64,000 bases of DNA from an uncultured Proteiniphilum sp. (GTDB taxonomy: Bacteria > Bacteroidota > Bacteroidia > Bacteroidales > Dysgonomonadaceae): contig CAZAFR010000003.1 in assembly GCA_964484665.1 (NCBI GenBank), forward strand, positions 28,516-92,515. Reading direction: 5' to 3'. The translations under genes and the position numbers were made by a program. The notes under the pieces are model-generated. The model was not told where the DNA came from. It searched no databases and saw nothing but the letters and a program-made list of their open reading frames with translations. Below are positions 11,208-18,675 of the stretch, piece by piece. The number at the start of each line of letters is the position of its first letter. Within the stretch, counting starts at the first letter, position 1.

Positions 11208-11238
11208 AAGTCGACATTTTTCTACAGTAAATAATTTG

Positions 11239-11277
11239 ACGGGTGAGAAACTTAACAGTTTTTCACCCGTTTTTTTT
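11239..11277 (+). terminator. Intrinsic terminator
   Basis: ACGGGTGAGAAAC / GTTTTTCACCCGT stem (one G-U pair) followed by a T7 tract. Confidence 0.9.
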
Positions 11278-11449: not shown

Positions 11450-11599
11450 TTATGTTGTGAATTTCATTCCTCCCCATACTGCCAATAGTCCAAGTATTAA
11501 ACTTGCCAAGGTGCATAATGCAAACAATCCCCATTGATTGGTCTCAATCAACCGTAAGTTCTCATATGCAAAGGAAGAGAATGTTGTATATCTTCCCAC
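11450..11599 (-). pseudogene. crcB: crcB (Fluc fluoride channel) 3' remnant
   Basis: Minus strand reads VGRYTTFSSFAYENLRLIETNQWGLFALCTLASLILGLLAVWGGMKFTT*, matching the CrcB GGxTTFSxFxxE motif and last TM helix. The N-terminal half is absent. Not in the ORF track. Confidence 0.8.
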
Positions 11600-11746
11600 A
11601 TTTGTGTGTAATTTTGTTGTTGGCAAAGATATTGATAAAAGTATATAATTAACAACAAAAGATCAATGTTTGCTAATATCAATTTGTTTTTGTGTTTTTA
11701 AATAAAAAATAACAGCCTATCACTACAGTTTACCGTAATTTTTGCA

Positions 11747-11754
11747 TAGATTTG
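11747..11754 (+). promoter_or_regulatory. Candidate Bacteroidetes -7 promoter box for the S-component operon
   Basis: TAGATTTG matches TAnnTTTG, 33 nt upstream of the ATG. Confidence 0.45.
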
Positions 11755-11786: not shown

Positions 11787-12296
11787 ATGGCTATGAATGC
11801 TAAACTTTACACTCTAGGCTTAAATAATGCAAAAACATACCTGATTGCTACGGTATTTGTTGTAGGTAATCTTTTGTTTCCTCAACTTGCACACTTAATT
11901 CCTCAGGGCGGATTTATTTTTCTGCCAATCTATTTCTTCACATTAATTGCTGCTTACAAGTATGGTATTCATGTAGGATTGCTAACAGCGATACTTTCGC
12001 CACTGGCTAACAGCATGCTTTTCGGTATGCCTCCTGTTGCTGTTCTTCCGGCAATTATGATCAAATCGGCTATCCTGGCTGTAGCTGCGGCAATGGCTGC
12101 CAAACATTTTGGAAAAATATCGTTGCTTGGTATTTTATTGGCAATACTTGCTTACCAGTTTATCGGAACGGGCATTGAATGGATTATGACACAAAACTTT
12201 ATGGTTGCTATTCAGGATTTTCGTATAGGCATTCCGGGAATGTTAATCCAGTTGATTGGGGGCTATTTTGTTCTAAAGGCTTTAGCTAAAGTCTAA
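11787..12296 (+). CDS. ECF-type S-component-like membrane protein
   Basis: About 170 aa, ~6 TM; PQLAHLIPQGG...LPIYFFTLIAAYKYG...GLLTAILSP...GMPP pattern. Confidence 0.75.
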   Translation: MAMNAKLYTLGLNNAKTYLIATVFVVGNLLFPQLAHLIPQGGFIFLPIYFFTLIAAYKYGIHVGLLTAILSPLANSMLFGMPPVAVLPAIMIKSAILAVAAAMAAKHFGKISLLGILLAILAYQFIGTGIEWIMTQNFMVAIQDFRIGIPGMLIQLIGGYFVLKALAKV

Positions 12297-12326
12297 ACTG
12301 ACTTTTATAGCTTTATTTTTATAAAA

Positions 12327-12728
12327 ATGATAAATACTAAATCATTTGAGGAAGTCATGCAACGATTTCGTGAAATTAAATTTCACGAGACTTTCGATAT
12401 GATAGTTGCAATTGCTAATGGCGGAATTATTCCAGCTGCAATTATTAACCAAAAGTTGAACATAGAGATACAACTATTAAAAATAAACTTGCGCGATCCC
12501 AACCAGAAGCCAAAGTACGATAGTCCTAAACTAATTTCTCCAATTGAATTTGAGTTTAAACATAAAAATATACTTTTAGTTGAAGATAGAGTCAAAACTG
12601 GAGCGACTGTACAATTCGCCATCGATCTTTTACATGGTGCCGGACAAATAAAAACATTCGCAGTAAACGGAAAAGCCGATTATTGCTTGTATGACGAGGC
12701 GTGCTTCAAATTTCCTTGGAATATATGA
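12327..12728 (+). CDS. Short type I phosphoribosyltransferase-like protein
   Basis: IVAIANGGIIPA and PRPP-loop ILLVEDRVKTGATV; only 133 aa. Confidence 0.8.
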   Translation: MINTKSFEEVMQRFREIKFHETFDMIVAIANGGIIPAAIINQKLNIEIQLLKINLRDPNQKPKYDSPKLISPIEFEFKHKNILLVEDRVKTGATVQFAIDLLHGAGQIKTFAVNGKADYCLYDEACFKFPWNI

Positions 12729-14635
12729 GAAGAGTTGCTATTTTGATCTTTTTCTGTTTATTAGCATTAAACCCTCTATTAAGCAATAACCCTTATTTTA
12801 TTAATTCCGACAAGTCAGATGGTTTAAATGATACTGTCAGACTAGATGAAGTAGTTGTTACCGGTTCAATGCCGAAAGTAAATCTTCGTAATGTGCCGAT
12901 GAGTATTTCAGTAATTTTCGAAAACAAAATTACTGAAAGAATGCAACCATCTCTCCTACCCTTGATTACAGAAGAGGTACCGGGACTTTTCATCTCAGAG
13001 CGAGGAGTTATGGGTTATGGTGTTGCAGCAGGAGCTGCAGGTGGAATGAGTATACGAGGTATAGGAGGGTCACCCACTTCGGGAGTTTTAATACTTATCG
13101 ACGGTCATCCGCAATATATGGGTCTGATGGGACATCCGTTGGCAGACAGTTACCAATCGATGATGACGGAACGTGTGGAAGTCGTTCGAGGACCCGCATC
13201 TGTGTTGTATGGCTCAAACGCTATGGGAGGTGTAATTAATATTATTACAAAAAAACAACAAGAAGATGGCAGCAATAATTCCGCACAGGTTTCCTATGGA
13301 AGTTACAACACACTTAGTGCAGAAGTTTCGTCAGGAATTAAAAGTGATCAATTTAACTTCAACAGCAGTATTGGATACAATCGCTCCGACGGTCATAGAG
13401 AGAATATGAATTTTGAACAGTTCAATGGTTATGCCAAAGTTGGTTATGATTTCATAGCCAACTGGAGTAGTTTTATCGACTTTAATCTGTCTAAAACCCT
13501 TAGCTCTAATCCCGGGACTGTCACAAGCCCTATTATTGATAATGATGCTAATATTTTAAGAGGAGCAGCTTCGGTAGTTTTAGAGAATGATTACATCAAC
13601 ACATCAGGAGCACTAAAGTTATTCTACAATTTCGGAACACATAAAATAAATGATGGCTATCTTGCGAGTTCATCGTTTATACCCGATTATCGTTTCAGAT
13701 CTAACGACCAAATGCTTGGAATATCAGCTTACCAGTCGTATAGCTTCTTTGATGGAAATGAAACAACTGCCGGAATCGATTTGCAGCGTTTTGGGGGTAA
13801 AGCATGGAACAAATTTCCCGAAGGACCTTCCAAAGATTCTACTCAGGTAGACATTCATATAAACAATATTGCTGGTTACCTGAATGTACAGCAAACGGTT
13901 ATGGATAATCGTTTAACAATGAATGCAGGTATTCGTCTTGATCATCACGAATTAAACGGGTCGGAATGGATACCTCAGTTTGGATTAAGTTTTACACCCA
14001 CAGCATACACTTGGTTAAAAGCAATCGTAAGCAAAGGATTTAGAAATCCTACTATTAGAGAACTGTATATGTTTCCTCCTCGAAATCCTAACCTACAAGC
14101 TGAGCGATTGATGAACTATGAGATTTCGTTAACTCAATTGATTCCTAATTCAGGCTTAACTTTAGGCCTAAACCTGTTCTATATTAAGGGAGATAATATA
14201 ATTCAGGTTCAGATGACTGAAGGAAGGCCATTAAATGTTAATTCTGGAGAGATAAAAAATAAAGGTTTTGAACTGACTGCCAATTATAATGCTACTAAAA
14301 ATCTAAGGTTCTCAGCAAACTACAGTCTATTGGATATGACTCATAAGATAATTGGAGCACCTAAACACAAGCTTTATGTAAGTGGTAATTATTCTATTGA
14401 TAGATGGAACTTCTCTACCGGTATGCAATATTTGGGAGATTTATATACAACAGTAAATCCGGAACCGATTACAGAAAAAGCATTACTGTGGAATGCAAGA
14501 GTTAACTTTAAAGTAATTGAATGGCTAAACATTTTTGCAAGAGGAGAAAATTTACTTGGTCAGGAATATGAAACAAATGCAGGTTACCCTATGCCTGGTG
14601 CAACCGTTTTCGGAGGATTACGGTTCGATTTATAA
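12725..14635 (+). CDS. TonB-dependent outer-membrane receptor
   Basis: LDEVVVTGS TonB-box region, ERVEVVRGPASVLYGSNAMGGVINIITKK plug motif, C-terminal GLRFDL. Start placed at 12725, overlapping the PRTase stop (ATGA). Confidence 0.93.
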   Translation: MRRVAILIFFCLLALNPLLSNNPYFINSDKSDGLNDTVRLDEVVVTGSMPKVNLRNVPMSISVIFENKITERMQPSLLPLITEEVPGLFISERGVMGYGVAAGAAGGMSIRGIGGSPTSGVLILIDGHPQYMGLMGHPLADSYQSMMTERVEVVRGPASVLYGSNAMGGVINIITKKQQEDGSNNSAQVSYGSYNTLSAEVSSGIKSDQFNFNSSIGYNRSDGHRENMNFEQFNGYAKVGYDFIANWSSFIDFNLSKTLSSNPGTVTSPIIDNDANILRGAASVVLENDYINTSGALKLFYNFGTHKINDGYLASSSFIPDYRFRSNDQMLGISAYQSYSFFDGNETTAGIDLQRFGGKAWNKFPEGPSKDSTQVDIHINNIAGYLNVQQTVMDNRLTMNAGIRLDHHELNGSEWIPQFGLSFTPTAYTWLKAIVSKGFRNPTIRELYMFPPRNPNLQAERLMNYEISLTQLIPNSGLTLGLNLFYIKGDNIIQVQMTEGRPLNVNSGEIKNKGFELTANYNATKNLRFSANYSLLDMTHKIIGAPKHKLYVSGNYSIDRWNFSTGMQYLGDLYTTVNPEPITEKALLWNARVNFKVIEWLNIFARGENLLGQEYETNAGYPMPGATVFGGLRFDL

Positions 14636-14732
14636 AGAATCGAATTTCTAAATGTTGATTCAAGAGGGTATAATAAATACCCGACATGATATTGTCTTAA
14701 ATGTAAACTGAAATATCAAAAAAATAAGTACT

Positions 14733-15674
14733 ATGGACAGACGGAATTTTTTACGTTCAATAGCCCTCACTGGTGCTGCTATTACGACTATAAAAGAGGC
14801 TGATGCCATGAGCATACTTTCACAATCGTTTCAAACCACTAACGCCGCTACTAACTATGATATGGTTGCTGTTATGGGTGGTGAGCCTGAAGTTATGTTT
14901 CGAAAGGCAATTGAAGAGATGGGAGGAATAAAGAAATTTATTAGTAAAGGAGATAAAGTGTGCATAAAGCCCAATATAGGTTGGGACCAACCTGTTGAAA
15001 TGGCTGCTAACACTAACCCAAAACTTATTACTGAAATAATAAAACAATGTTTTGATGCAGGTGCTGCTGAGATTAAGGTTTTTGATCATACTTGCGACGA
15101 TTGGCGCAAATCGTATGCTAATAGCGGTATAGAAGATGCTGCAAAAAAGGCTGGAGCAGAAGTTCTGCCTGCTCATCAGGAATCTTATTATAAAACTGTT
15201 TCTATACCAAAAGGCAGAAGCCTGAAGACTGCAAAAATCCATCAAGCAATTGTGGACAGTGATAAGTGGATAAATGTGCCCATTCTTAAAAATCATGGAG
15301 GAGCACAACTAACTATTTCCATGAAAAACTATATGGGGATAGTTTGGGATAGAGGATTTTTTCATGCAAACGACCTACAACAATGTATTGCCGATATTTG
15401 TACTTATGAAAAAAAGCCTGTTTTGAATATTGTTGATGCTTATCGACTTATGAAAACAAGCGGACCGAGAGGAAGATCGCTTTCAGATGTTGTACTATCA
15501 AAGGGATTGTTTATGTCGCAAGACATTGTTGCTGTTGACACTGCTGCTGCCAATTTTTTTAATCAAGCTCGCAAGATGCCTCTTGAAAATGTAACACATA
15601 TAGCAAAAGCACAGGAGCATGGATTAGGGACCATGGATCTTGAGAAGCTGAATATTAGAAGAATCAAAATATAA
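14733..15674 (+). CDS. DUF362 domain protein with Tat signal
   Basis: MDRRNFLR signal; GDKVCIKPNIGW, NTNP, INVPILKNH, TISMKNYMG, DIVAVD. Confidence 0.85.
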   Translation: MDRRNFLRSIALTGAAITTIKEADAMSILSQSFQTTNAATNYDMVAVMGGEPEVMFRKAIEEMGGIKKFISKGDKVCIKPNIGWDQPVEMAANTNPKLITEIIKQCFDAGAAEIKVFDHTCDDWRKSYANSGIEDAAKKAGAEVLPAHQESYYKTVSIPKGRSLKTAKIHQAIVDSDKWINVPILKNHGGAQLTISMKNYMGIVWDRGFFHANDLQQCIADICTYEKKPVLNIVDAYRLMKTSGPRGRSLSDVVLSKGLFMSQDIVAVDTAAANFFNQARKMPLENVTHIAKAQEHGLGTMDLEKLNIRRIKI

Positions 15675-15780
15675 TATTAATGTTAAGGTTTATTGATTCA
15701 TAGTAACCAATAACCCGATTTAATATCCTGTTGTGGTCATCTATTTAATCGAATGAAAAACTAATTGAAAGAAAAGCATT

Positions 15781-17385
15781 ATGCTAAAAAAAATTCGTGT
15801 AACGGTATCTGTTATAATTTTCGCTCTTATAACATTTTATTTCTTAGATTTTAGGGGATTTCTACCGGAAAGTTTAAATTTTTTGACAGAAATACAATTT
15901 ATCCCAGCACTTCTTTCTTTAAACGTAATCATATTACTGTCATTGATAGTACTTACGCTTCTTTTCGGAAGAGTCTACTGTTCTTCAATTTGTCCTTTGG
16001 GTGTATATCAGGACCTTGTTGCATGGTTGTCTAAGAAATTCAATAAAAAAAAGAGATACAAATTCATCAAAGCTAAAAACCTACTTCGCTGGAGTGTTTT
16101 AGGAGCAACGGTTGTTGCATTTATCATTGGGTTCAACTTTTTAGTTGGACTACTCGATCCATACGGAGCTTATGGCAGAATGGTAACTCATCTTTTCAGA
16201 CCTGGCTATCTGGCAGGGAACAACCTTCTGGAGACAATATTCACCTCATTCGGCAATTACACTTTTTATAAAGTAAGTATTTATATTTTGAGCGTTTCCT
16301 CAACAATAATAGCATTAATCACACTTGTGGTAATCAGCTATATGGCATGGACAGGAGGAAGAACATACTGCAACACTATTTGTCCAGTTGGAACAACACT
16401 CGGTCTCTTGAGTAAATACTCACTTTTCAAAGTTCAGTTTATTGACGAAAAATGCAATTTGTGTGGTCTCTGCGCTATGAAATGTAAAGCATCCTGTATC
16501 GACATAAAAAATAAAGAGATCGATTACAGCAGATGTGTTACCTGCTTCAACTGCATAGAAAGCTGTAACCGTGAAGCAATAAAATACAAGATAGTCCAAC
16601 GAAAAAAAGAAACTCTTGCCAATGCAATTCCGGCATATACTTATGAAAAAGAAGATTTAACATACAAATCATCATATCAAGATAAAACAGAGAAGTCTGA
16701 GTCGGCTCTCAAAACGGTAAACGAATCCAAACGTCGTTTTATATCTGCATCACTGATAACAGGACTCACAGCGGGGAAGCTACTAGCTCAACATGTTTCG
16801 GGTAACATCCTACCTAAAAAAGACCTTAAAAGGCAGGTGCCAATTGCACCTCCGGGAGCACTTTCTTTTGATCATCTAAAAGAAAAATGTATCTCTTGCC
16901 ATTTATGTGTAAGCAAATGCCCCTCTCACGTAATTAAACCTGCTCTCCTAGAGTACGGACTTGGAGGAATAATGCAACCTAAGCTTTATTTCGATCATGG
17001 ATTCTGTAACTATGATTGCACTATATGTGGAGATGTTTGTCCAACAGGCGCCATTCAACCTTTAACCGTTGAAGAAAAAAATCATACACAAATGGGACAG
17101 GTACAATTTATACTCGAAAATTGTATCGTCTACTGCGATGAAACAAGCTGTGGCGCTTGTTCAGAACACTGCCCTACCCAAGCCGTTCACATGGTTCCCT
17201 ATAAAGGGCATCTAACTATTCCTGAAATTGACCCTTCTATATGTATAGGTTGCGGTGGCTGTGAGTATGTCTGTCCAGCCATACCATACAAAGCTATTTA
17301 TGTAGAAGGAATCGATACACAGAATATCATCGAAATTAAACATGATGAAGTTGATGAAATTGTAATTGATGATTTTGGATTTTAA
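15781..17385 (+). CDS. Membrane polyferredoxin (NapH-like N-terminus fused to NapF-like C-terminus)
   Basis: GRVYCSSICPLG and GRTYCNTICPVG; multiple CxxCxxCxxxCP clusters; PPGA motif; internal KRRFIS. Confidence 0.88.
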   Translation: MLKKIRVTVSVIIFALITFYFLDFRGFLPESLNFLTEIQFIPALLSLNVIILLSLIVLTLLFGRVYCSSICPLGVYQDLVAWLSKKFNKKKRYKFIKAKNLLRWSVLGATVVAFIIGFNFLVGLLDPYGAYGRMVTHLFRPGYLAGNNLLETIFTSFGNYTFYKVSIYILSVSSTIIALITLVVISYMAWTGGRTYCNTICPVGTTLGLLSKYSLFKVQFIDEKCNLCGLCAMKCKASCIDIKNKEIDYSRCVTCFNCIESCNREAIKYKIVQRKKETLANAIPAYTYEKEDLTYKSSYQDKTEKSESALKTVNESKRRFISASLITGLTAGKLLAQHVSGNILPKKDLKRQVPIAPPGALSFDHLKEKCISCHLCVSKCPSHVIKPALLEYGLGGIMQPKLYFDHGFCNYDCTICGDVCPTGAIQPLTVEEKNHTQMGQVQFILENCIVYCDETSCGACSEHCPTQAVHMVPYKGHLTIPEIDPSICIGCGGCEYVCPAIPYKAIYVEGIDTQNIIEIKHDEVDEIVIDDFGF

Positions 17386-17496: not shown

Positions 17497-18675
17497 ATGA
17501 AAAGATTAAGTTTAACTCTCCTCTGTTTTGTGGTTTTTATGGGAAGTCATGCTCAAAGCAGTATAGAATATATATTACAAAAAATTGAAACAAACAACAC
17601 TACCTTACATTCTATACAAAAACAGATAGAAGCACAAAAATTAGAAAGTAAAACGGGTATTTATTTACCAAACCCTGAAGTTGAGTATAGTTATTTATGG
17701 GGTAGTCCGTCCGAAGTTGAGAATGAAAAGTCATTTACCATAACTCAATCAATGGATTTTCCTACTGCATACGCACACAGGAAAAAAATATCGAGCATGA
17801 AAAATCAAAACCTTGATATGTTTTACAATTCTGAAAGAATGAATGTGCTATTGCAGGCAAAACAATTGATTATCAATCTTTCATACTATAATGCTCTGTC
17901 AAAGGATTATGAAAACAGGATAGAGATTGCAAAGGAAGTTGCAGAATCATATCAGAAAATGTATGATAAAGGAGCAATTGACATTTTAGAGAGAAATCAA
18001 GTGTATATGGACCTTATGACACGTATAAATGACAAAGAGAAAATTGATATTGAAAGAAAGTCGTTATTAAATGAGCTAAAAGCATTTAATGGGGATAAAG
18101 ATATTCAATTTGACGAAACAGAAATACCCCACTCTCCTCTTCCTTTAAATTTTAATGAATGGTATTCAGAAGCAGAATCAAGAAGTCCTGTTATTCAATA
18201 TCTAAATCAACAGATTGAAATAAACAAACAACACATAAAACTCCATCAGGCACTTTCTTTACCTAAACTTTCCGCCGGATATCACGATGAAAGAATTTTG
18301 GGTGAAAAACTACAAGGTATAGCAATAGGTATCTCTATACCACTTTGGGAAAACAAAAATACAGTTAAACAAGCAAGAGCAGATGTAGTTTCGGGCGAAT
18401 CATCTTTAGAAGACAATAAGCTTCAATATTATAACAGGTTGCAAAACCTATTCAATAAATCTGTCGATTTGCAAAAAACTGCAGAGAAATATCGTCAAGC
18501 ACTTTCAACATATAATAGTCTTCCCATGTTAAGGAAAGCACTTGATACAGGTGAGATTAATCTTCTAAACTATCTGCTGCAAATAGAAAACTATTATGAT
18601 GCATATAACACTATGCTTGAAATAGAAAGGGATTATGCACTTGCAGTGGCAGAATTAACAGCTGTATCTTTGTAA
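17497..18675 (+). CDS. TolC family outer-membrane efflux protein (CzcC-like)
   Basis: Signal peptide; LPNPEVEY, QSMDFPTAY, LPKLSAGY, ISIPLWENK, GEINLLNYL motifs; helical coiled-coil character. Confidence 0.85.
   Translation: MKRLSLTLLCFVVFMGSHAQSSIEYILQKIETNNTTLHSIQKQIEAQKLESKTGIYLPNPEVEYSYLWGSPSEVENEKSFTITQSMDFPTAYAHRKKISSMKNQNLDMFYNSERMNVLLQAKQLIINLSYYNALSKDYENRIEIAKEVAESYQKMYDKGAIDILERNQVYMDLMTRINDKEKIDIERKSLLNELKAFNGDKDIQFDETEIPHSPLPLNFNEWYSEAESRSPVIQYLNQQIEINKQHIKLHQALSLPKLSAGYHDERILGEKLQGIAIGISIPLWENKNTVKQARADVVSGESSLEDNKLQYYNRLQNLFNKSVDLQKTAEKYRQALSTYNSLPMLRKALDTGEINLLNYLLQIENYYDAYNTMLEIERDYALAVAELTAVSL

Follow-up and report, generated by a model that had tools for sequence, protein, structure and literature searches.

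A modular Bacteroidales operon with a solitary S-component, a mini-phosphoribosyltransferase and an exported DUF362 protein of predicted LarA-like fold: a possible cofactor supply line

What might a small-molecule permease, a phosphoribosyltransferase (PRTase), a TonB-dependent outer-membrane receptor, an exported DUF362 protein and a membrane polyferredoxin do together? This question is raised by five genes of an uncultured Proteiniphilum sp. (Bacteroidales; Dysgonomonadaceae), which were found in a stretch of 64,000 nucleotides (nt) of contig CAZAFR010000003.1 (positions 28,516 to 92,515). The whole stretch is referred to as the window, and coordinates are positions in it, the five genes lying at 11787-17385 on the plus strand. 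Based on homology searches, gene neighbourhoods and predicted structures, the genes form a real, modular operon which is conserved in Bacteroidales. All of its families are known; the combination and the suggested function are new. We give a probability of roughly 45% to the reading that the permease, the PRTase and the receptor supply a niacin-derived cofactor of the nickel-pincer type, or its base, to LarA-type enzymes.

The open reading frames (ORFs) are all on the plus strand, where the initial annotation had placed them, with intergenic distances of 30, -4, 97 and 106 nt in gene order. The negative value reflects the ATGA at which the receptor ATG overlaps the PRTase TGA, and no convincing plus-strand terminator was found inside the operon; the co-directional order, the short gaps, the overlap and the lack of a strong internal terminator had all been described correctly.

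The conservation of this arrangement was examined in 301 sampled Bacteroidales genomes and in 401 genomes sampled across the phylum, 29 and 7 of which, respectively, carry the gene for the permease, an S-component of the energy-coupling factor (ECF) type. A total of 116 loci were gathered, each with at most 20 kb of surrounding sequence, and the neighbouring genes were scored by tblastn; 73 loci had enough flanking sequence. The PRTase adjoins the S-component in 32/73 loci and TM1506/DUF1893 is present in 22/73, the two never being found together. The PRTase is present in 26/28 of the DUF362 loci, and TM1506 goes with an aldo/keto reductase (AKR) which is exported by the twin-arginine translocation (Tat) system and bears a 4Fe-4S domain, here AKR-Fer4 (9/13). 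The polyferredoxin was found in 38/73 loci, always with DUF362 or AKR-Fer4. A sister cassette was thereby recognized in which TM1506 and AKR-Fer4 replace the PRTase and DUF362; the two types are mutually exclusive and never mix in the 73 loci, and in the S-component tree the sequences separate cleanly into two clades, one of the PRTase/DUF362 and one of the TM1506/AKR type. Of the 29 S-component genomes, 27 encode an exported DUF362 or AKR-Fer4 protein somewhere (odds ratio (OR) 20, p 3e-8), a count which includes genomes whose S-component locus holds TM1506 only. Dozens of genomes, spread over many Bacteroidales families, have the arrangement, which is far more than chance would give, and the genes that had been taken for one candidate system are co-conserved.

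An operon of TM1506, an aldo/keto reductase and a 5TM protein was noted in 2011 without a function (Iyer, Zhang, Rogozin, Aravind; PMC3239186). Such operons have the same S-component family, TonB-dependent receptor (TBDR) and polyferredoxin as the window operon, and differ from it in lacking the PRTase and DUF362. Only this sister cassette had been noted before. The earlier statement that no characterised pathway has this composition is supported.

Two variants of the cassettes were observed. In locus L052 (7000-7995), which belongs to the PRTase-type clade, a Tat-exported AKR without the Fe-S domain lies between the PRTase and the TonB receptor, and this locus mixes features of both types. 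In the TM1506/AKR cassette, a Flavodoxin_4 protein with a signal peptide precedes the polyferredoxin in seven loci (L038:18560-19183, L061, L114, L122, L129, L140 and L144) and may be an extra periplasmic electron carrier.

The DUF362 product carries the twin-arginine leader MDRRNFLRSIALTGAAITT, of the S/T-R-R-x-F-L-K type and with a hydrophobic stretch, in which residues R3, R4 and F6 are at least 97% conserved among 72 orthologues. DUF362 is placed in the same Pfam clan as Lar_N, the N-terminal domain of LarA (PMC11770544). When the predicted structure was compared with the PDB by Foldseek, the top 13 matches were all LarA or LarA-like nickel-pincer nucleotide (NPN) enzymes (E 8e-6 to 3e-4), and according to this model, the confidence of which is low, the protein has a LarA-like fold; a sequence search against the PDB gave nothing useful. 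In the same 72 orthologues, which come from all contexts, the motif H188-x9-K198-x12-H211 is at least 97% conserved. The corresponding residues of LarA1 would be the catalytic histidine H174, the cofactor tether K184 and the nickel ligand H200 (PMC11770544), and the His-Lys spacing of the DUF362 motif equals that of LarA1. In the Lar_N matches of Pfam, the His and Lys of a DUF362 paralogue and of a LarA homologue fell at the same model positions. The alignment of these motifs is suggestive of an equivalence between the His-Lys-His of DUF362 and the LarA residues.

DUF362 has the Pfam clan and the predicted fold in common with the LarA superfamily. It also has a conserved His...Lys...His motif, and its orthologues are found adjacent to larC-larE-larB. 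The window protein differs from LarA in being about 100 residues shorter, in having no scoring Lar_N match, in its export by Tat and in its constant pairing with a membrane polyferredoxin. This pairing implies net redox chemistry rather than racemisation, and the substrate is probably a 2-hydroxy or carbonyl compound. About one third of the sampled Bacteroidales carry the exported DUF362-polyferredoxin pair. Of the initial annotation's exported DUF362 protein fed by a polyferredoxin, the pairing is supported and the enzyme itself is now assigned as a LarA-like protein. The logic is that of MsrPQ (YedYZ), in which a Tat-exported, cofactor-loaded periplasmic enzyme has its own membrane electron carrier, although the proteins and cofactors are unrelated. 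No paper on what DUF362 does, or on nickel-pincer cofactor salvage, was found in full-text literature searches.

The polyferredoxin had been described as NapH/NapF-like, an assignment which is replaced here by a fusion of NapH and NapG. Its N-terminus has four transmembrane segments and two CxxxCP motifs (residues 67 and 197), followed by two cluster motifs on the cytoplasmic side (225 and 252), the internal twin-arginine segment KRRFISASL near residue 317 and four further cluster motifs (370, 409, 448 and 488). The scores for NapH (73 bits) and NapG (59 bits) were both under the cut-offs. The NapH-NapG fusion class needs both Sec and Tat (PMC5449189), and by its sequence features the window protein is assigned to the fused, dual Sec/Tat polyferredoxins of this type. 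It has in common with the MLMS-1 polyferredoxin of a delta-proteobacterium (Tooke et al. 2017, PMC5449189) and with NapGH the four transmembrane helices, the two CxxxCP motifs, the two cytoplasmic clusters, the internal twin-arginine transmembrane segment and the four periplasmic clusters. Its topology and Tat dependence are predicted, and it differs from NapGH in its partner, which is DUF362 or AKR-Fer4 and not nitrate reductase. Its predicted role is to connect quinol or quinone with the periplasm.

The distribution of the lar genes points to a connection between the operon and the LarA cofactor. DUF362 was found in 105/301 genomes and LarC in 47/301, with both present in 32 (OR 5.3, p 5e-7). 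In about 16 genomes the two adjoin on the contig, the arrangement being larC-larE-larB-wbqC divergent from DUF362-polyferredoxin, as confirmed by Pfam. No LarC was detected in any of the 32 S-component genomes, the window genome included; at the level of the order the overlap was 0/29, as against LarC in 47/301 overall (p 0.012). Neither LarC nor LarE was found in the window genome, and its single LarB match is weak and is probably PurE, so that the co-occurrence with LarB, LarC and LarE that marks the LarA superfamily is not seen there. Compared with the LarB/LarE/LarC pathway, the window operon has a permease and a PRTase in place of the lar genes; conversely, no S-component-like ORF was found in the DUF362 loci linked to larCEB. 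The position beside DUF362-polyferredoxin is thus taken either by genes for making the cofactor or by a small permease of the vitamin type, a distribution classically seen where salvage replaces biosynthesis.

The larC-larE-larB clusters that adjoin DUF362-polyferredoxin regularly have a WbqC-like gene (PF08889) at their end (L167-L174, e.g. L171:12873-13520). The WbqC-like gene of the window genome lies in a housekeeping context and was set aside as uninformative.

The window genome also encodes, outside the window, a cytoplasmic LarA homologue (Table 1) in which the spacing H-x9-K-x15-H is exact and whose neighbours are uxaC-like, 6-phosphogluconate-dehydrogenase-like, short-chain dehydrogenase/reductase and kinase genes. 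In this hexuronate/gluconate context it may be an epimerase of the gluconate/mannonate type which needs an external cofactor. Its family occurs in 62/301 genomes, 40 of these 62 with LarC (OR 60, p 1e-26). LarC is missing in 22 carriers; the PRTase-type S-component is present in five of these, compared with 8/232 of the other LarC-less genomes (OR 8.2, p 0.0025), and none of the 22 has an S-component of the TM1506-type clade. In L052 the S-component, PRTase, Tat-exported AKR and receptor lie 6 kb from the LarA homologue.

The permease itself scored 18.1 bits for Pfam ECF_trnsprt (PF12822), below the cut-off of 30.7. A homologous subfamily passes this cut-off with 46-53 bits, and its profile aligned with that of the window family by hhalign at 99.2% (E 3e-19). 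The AlphaFold2 model was of good quality (pLDDT 86.5); its best Foldseek matches in the PDB were RibU, YkoE, FolT, ThiT and PanT (TM-score about 0.6), and the top 12 were all S-components (probability at least 0.93, TM-score 0.51-0.65). The modelled protein has the six-helix fold of the ECF S-components, and the invariant residues are H36, G42, P47, F50, T52, G80-M81-P82, Q124 and P150-G151. A sequence search against the PDB gave nothing useful. No match to EcfT (PF02361) was found in the 99.5%-complete genome, compared with matches in 11 of 14 control genomes. The S-component is solitary because the genome is without EcfT, as had been supposed from the window, and a canonical ECF transporter was rejected on the same ground.

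This S-component shares its fold with RibU, ThiT, FolT and NiaX, and like BioY and BtuM it lacks an EcfAA'T module. It differs from known S-components in scoring below the Pfam cut-off, and its partners, a PRTase or TM1506 and an exported redox enzyme, are without precedent among them. Both it and BtuM can pair with a TonB receptor; BtuM, however, has a cobalt-ligating Cys and the window protein has no Cys at all. A role in cobalamin uptake of the BtuM type was rejected in view of the remote similarity of the receptor to BtuB, the lack of a B12 riboswitch and the absence of Cys from the S-component. The predicted role of the S-component is that of a permease in the inner membrane whose cargo is a small molecule of the niacin-like or pincer type.

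Relatives of the permease extend these contexts. A distant subfamily with 27% identity to the window S-component, to which one source gives the name 'niacin transporter', heads an S-component-DUF362-polyferredoxin operon in 3/7 contexts, with the same Tat leader and His-Lys-His motif. Two of its members (L073 and L221) lie instead inside a hexuronate operon of a cytoplasmic LarA homologue, beside that operon's own sugar-acid transporter of the major facilitator superfamily (MFS), and this operon has no exported, periplasmic enzyme. A third subfamily, named S2, comprises proteins of about 170 residues without a Pfam match, always encoded divergently from DUF362-polyferredoxin. This arrangement was found in eight further genomes, all without LarC. 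The homology of S2 to the window family rests on an intermediate subfamily, with which hhalign gave 95.5% (E 1.4e-8); the direct comparison was not significant. In L188 a WbqC-like gene follows S2.

The second gene encodes a PRTase of type I, with a score for PF00156 well above the cut-off of 26.3 bits and the phosphoribosyl pyrophosphate (PRPP) loop ILLVEDRVKTGAT. The predicted reaction is base plus PRPP to mononucleotide. Its closest solved relatives are the archaeal purine PRTases of P. horikoshii (1vdm) and S. solfataricus (GpT, 4trb), with which it shares the type-I core, the PRPP loop and a C-terminal F-x-(F/Y)-P-W. It differs from these in its length of only 133 residues, in an invariant Cys126 and N-x-R-D motifs, in always adjoining the S-component, and in the loop EDRVKTGAT, where Lys90 takes the place of the Asp that 1vdm and 4trb have immediately before T-G. 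In 6-oxopurine PRTases that Asp has a catalytic role. Position 90 is K or R in the Bacteroidales relatives and V in two distant relatives. The invariant residues are N54, R56, D57, A117-D118-Y119, E124 and C126. The best score among the NCBIfam models was 35.9 for XPRT (cut-off 138), and by sequence the protein is not a member of the 6-oxopurine PRTases (Hpt/Gpt/Xpt). A profile search found only close relatives and no added gene context.

Two unrelated units might nevertheless have been fused here, the S-component and PRTase serving nucleobase or niacin salvage (e.g. of xanthine, guanine or nicotinate) and the receptor, DUF362 and polyferredoxin a separate redox function. Such a fusion would accord with the S-component and PRTase pairs which stand alone in L052, L062, L070, L071, L079 and L104, with the DUF362-polyferredoxin pairs that also occur alone, and with the purine PRTases being the closest solved and named relatives. 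A scan of the genome for PRPP-loop motifs gave Apt-, Upp-, PyrE-, ComF- and Prs-like genes and no Hpt/Gpt-type gene, by a crude regex which is a weak method for such an absence; if the absence were true, the mini-PRTase would be the sole candidate 6-oxopurine PRTase of the genome. Independent units, however, would not explain why the PRTase is found with DUF362 in 26/28 loci and never with AKR-Fer4, why the S-component tree splits cleanly by partner, or why 27/29 S-component genomes carry an exported partner enzyme. The PRTase has Lys where 6-oxopurine PRTases use Asp, and a housekeeping salvage pair would not be limited to about 5-10% of Bacteroidales. We regard the fusion as improbable.

The third gene encodes a TonB-dependent receptor with a Plug domain (PF07715, 71 bits) and a barrel domain (PF00593, 124 bits); a longer ORF starting at GTG 12701 is a mechanical call only. 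The best matches are to BtuB and heme receptors and are far below threshold, the score for TIGR01779 (BtuB) being 132 bits against a cut-off of 600, so that the protein is not classed as BtuB. The receptor had been proposed as a step of the system; it was found in only 24/73 loci and is an optional add-on, a putative scavenging module. The same TBDR family, at 47-55% identity, occurs in both cassettes. In L037, of the same genus, the receptor is reduced to two fragments (12147-12526; query residues 35-109 and 580-632) and the other four genes are intact, which looks like the recent loss of an optional module.

How the parts would work together can be outlined as follows. The optional receptor would capture a compound outside the cell, and the solitary S-component would carry it across the inner membrane. 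The mini-PRTase would add ribose-5-phosphate to the base form, which would trap the compound and regenerate a mononucleotide; this product is expected because NPN is itself a mononucleotide, a derivative of nicotinic-acid mononucleotide (PMC11770544). The mononucleotide would be loaded onto DUF362 before export, and onto the cytoplasmic LarA homologue. Cytoplasmic loading is implied by the Tat signal, and DUF362 would leave the cytoplasm folded and cofactor-loaded, after which the NapH-NapG polyferredoxin would couple it to the membrane quinone pool. The NPN-type cofactor of DUF362, the cargo of the permease, the substrate base of the PRTase and the direction of electron flow are what we infer in this scheme.

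In the chain of the initial annotation, processing in the periplasm precedes import. In the form considered here, a scarce molecule would enter by the TonB receptor or porins, be reduced or oxidised by DUF362 and the polyferredoxin, be imported by the S-component and be trapped by the PRTase, or by TM1506 in the sister cassette. That chain remains plausible. It agrees with the exported enzyme, polyferredoxin and S-component being the conserved core in three S-component subfamilies, with the exported DUF362 or AKR-Fer4 of 27/29 S-component genomes and with the TBDR family common to both cassettes. Two hydride-transfer enzymes, one LarA-like and one an AKR, in a single slot suggest a shared reaction type and one substrate class, and facilitated uptake of vitamins usually relies on such a combination of a solitary S-component with an enzyme for trapping. 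What it leaves unexplained is chiefly related to lar. The S-component is never found with the DUF362-polyferredoxin pairs that adjoin larCEB, the S-component genomes lack larC and yet keep the LarA-type residues, the PRTase-type clade is over-represented among LarC-less genomes with the cytoplasmic LarA homologue, and a relative of the S-component sits in a cytoplasmic LarA-homologue operon without an exported enzyme. In addition, no candidate substrate suits all four steps. It explains less than cofactor supply does and is judged less likely, but it is a serious rival.

The supply line is most likely for the cofactor of DUF362 and not for its substrate. This is favoured because DUF362 orthologues adjoin larCEB and S-component genomes are never found with larC, because of the enrichment of the PRTase-type S-component in LarC-less genomes with a LarA homologue, and because of the S-component relative in a LarA-homologue operon lacking a periplasmic enzyme, together with a PRTase that lacks the purine-type Asp.

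Several observations weigh against cofactor supply. The pLDDT of the DUF362 model is low (60.6), the profile comparison of DUF362 with LarA homologues by hhalign was not significant, and no DUF362 protein is known to bind NPN. To our knowledge, the pincer base is never free in the known pathway, since LarB acts on nicotinic acid adenine dinucleotide, and a free base as substrate of the PRTase is therefore hypothetical. Many S-component-DUF362-polyferredoxin operons are without a PRTase, and the genome may be without a canonical Hpt, which would leave a plain purine role for this enzyme. The genome counts given above include no correction for phylogeny. None of the 40 AKR-Fer4 genomes has LarC either, so that lineage structure explains part of the exclusivity of LarC and the S-component. 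In 59 of the 105 DUF362 genomes neither LarC nor an S-component was detectable with this query, only some of them carrying S2, and 17 genomes with the LarA homologue have neither LarC nor the S-component. Finally, the sister cassette pairs the S-component with an AKR and TM1506, for which a special cofactor is not obvious.

Import of nickel, or of another metal, for LarA-type enzymes by the S-component, with a nickel chelate taken up by the TonB receptor, was also considered. The S-component family is linked to genes of the LarA clan, TonB receptors commonly import metal chelates, and Desguin and colleagues are said to have reported in 2014 a nickel ECF transporter, Lar(MN)QO, in the lar locus of Lactiplantibacillus plantarum. 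The relatives of the S-component, however, are of the group-II vitamin type (RibU, ThiT, FolT, 'NiaX') and not CbiM/NikM. Nickel by itself would serve no purpose here, where LarB (apart from the weak match), LarE and LarC are absent, and the adjoining PRTase points to an organic base. This explanation is very improbable.

Table 1. Features of the operon, its flanks and related loci. Locations are window positions unless a genome or locus is named.
Feature	Location	Strand	Evidence or remark
Solitary ECF-type S-component, 169 aa, PRTase/DUF362 clade	11787..12296	+	Fold, profile alignment, no EcfT
Mini type-I PRTase, 133 aa	12327..12728	+	PF00156 at 50.4 bits
TonB-dependent outer-membrane receptor, 636 aa from ATG 12725	12725..14635	+	Plug and barrel domains
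Tat-exported DUF362 protein, 313 aa, putative LarA-like periplasmic enzyme	14733..15674	+	PF04015, 162 bits; MDRRNFL leader
NapH-NapG fusion polyferredoxin, 534 aa	15781..17385	+	Motif and hydropathy scan
Intrinsic terminator of upstream unit	11238..11271	+	15-bp stem, 6 GC pairs, then T-run
Bacteroidetes-type -7 promoter box TAGATTTG	11747..11754	+	33 nt before S-component ATG
TolC-like outer-membrane efflux protein	17497..18675	+	PF02321; co-directional neighbour
Cytoplasmic LarA homologue, 430 aa	Window genome G000:C2:27077-28369, outside the window		H151-x9-K161-x15-H177
S2 members	L188:10745-11257, L190:10625-11143, L192:10680-11189, L193:10803-11306, L195-L197

The operon region is bounded on the 5' side by the terminator of the preceding unit (Table 1). 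Upstream of the S-component, TAGATTTG was identified as a -7 box on the basis of TAnnTTTG, which we take to be the consensus of Bacteroides promoters, and it recurs at the equal position in many related loci. The leaders of these loci are short and AT-rich, and no conserved leader structure was found among them. No Rfam elements or riboswitches were detected in the window at either gathering or permissive thresholds, and a riboswitch or leader RNA was rejected on these grounds. About 30-45 nt upstream of the -7 box lies an A-rich box, TAAATAAAAAATAACA (11699-11716), which is conserved in the family-level relatives (L075-L078 and L085) and not beyond; it could serve as an operator or belong to the promoter. 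A hydrophobic ORF of 58 codons also lies on the minus strand (11450-11626) of the 580-nt spacer that precedes the operon; it may have arisen by chance or be what is left of a gene for a membrane protein.

On the 3' side, the co-directional TolC-like gene follows the operon in only 3/73 loci, namely the window and its close relatives L037 and L076. It was rejected as an operon member, not being conserved with the operon, and is probably outside the system. No genes for resistance-nodulation-division (RND) or membrane fusion protein (MFP) components adjoin it, so that it is solitary.

It is tentatively proposed, with less assurance than cofactor supply in general, that DUF362 constitutes a new class of nickel-pincer enzyme with net redox chemistry linked to respiration, and that bacteria without larBCE salvage the pincer cofactor or its pyridine base from their neighbours by way of the TonB receptor, a solitary S-component resembling NiaX and the mini-PRTase, which would re-ribosylate the base. 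If DUF362 does use this cofactor, its reach would extend from cytoplasmic racemases to periplasmic enzymes linked to the respiratory chain. Functions would also be gained for four widespread families which have no assigned function or only generic names (DUF362, the mini-PRTase, the S-component family and the fused polyferredoxin). Salvage would account for the LarA homologues in genomes which lack larBCE, and would provide evidence, the first of its kind, that microbes exchange the nickel-pincer cofactor or a precursor, as they do B12, thiamine and queuosine precursors. The nickel-pincer cofactor would then be a shared, vitamin-like commodity in anaerobic communities.

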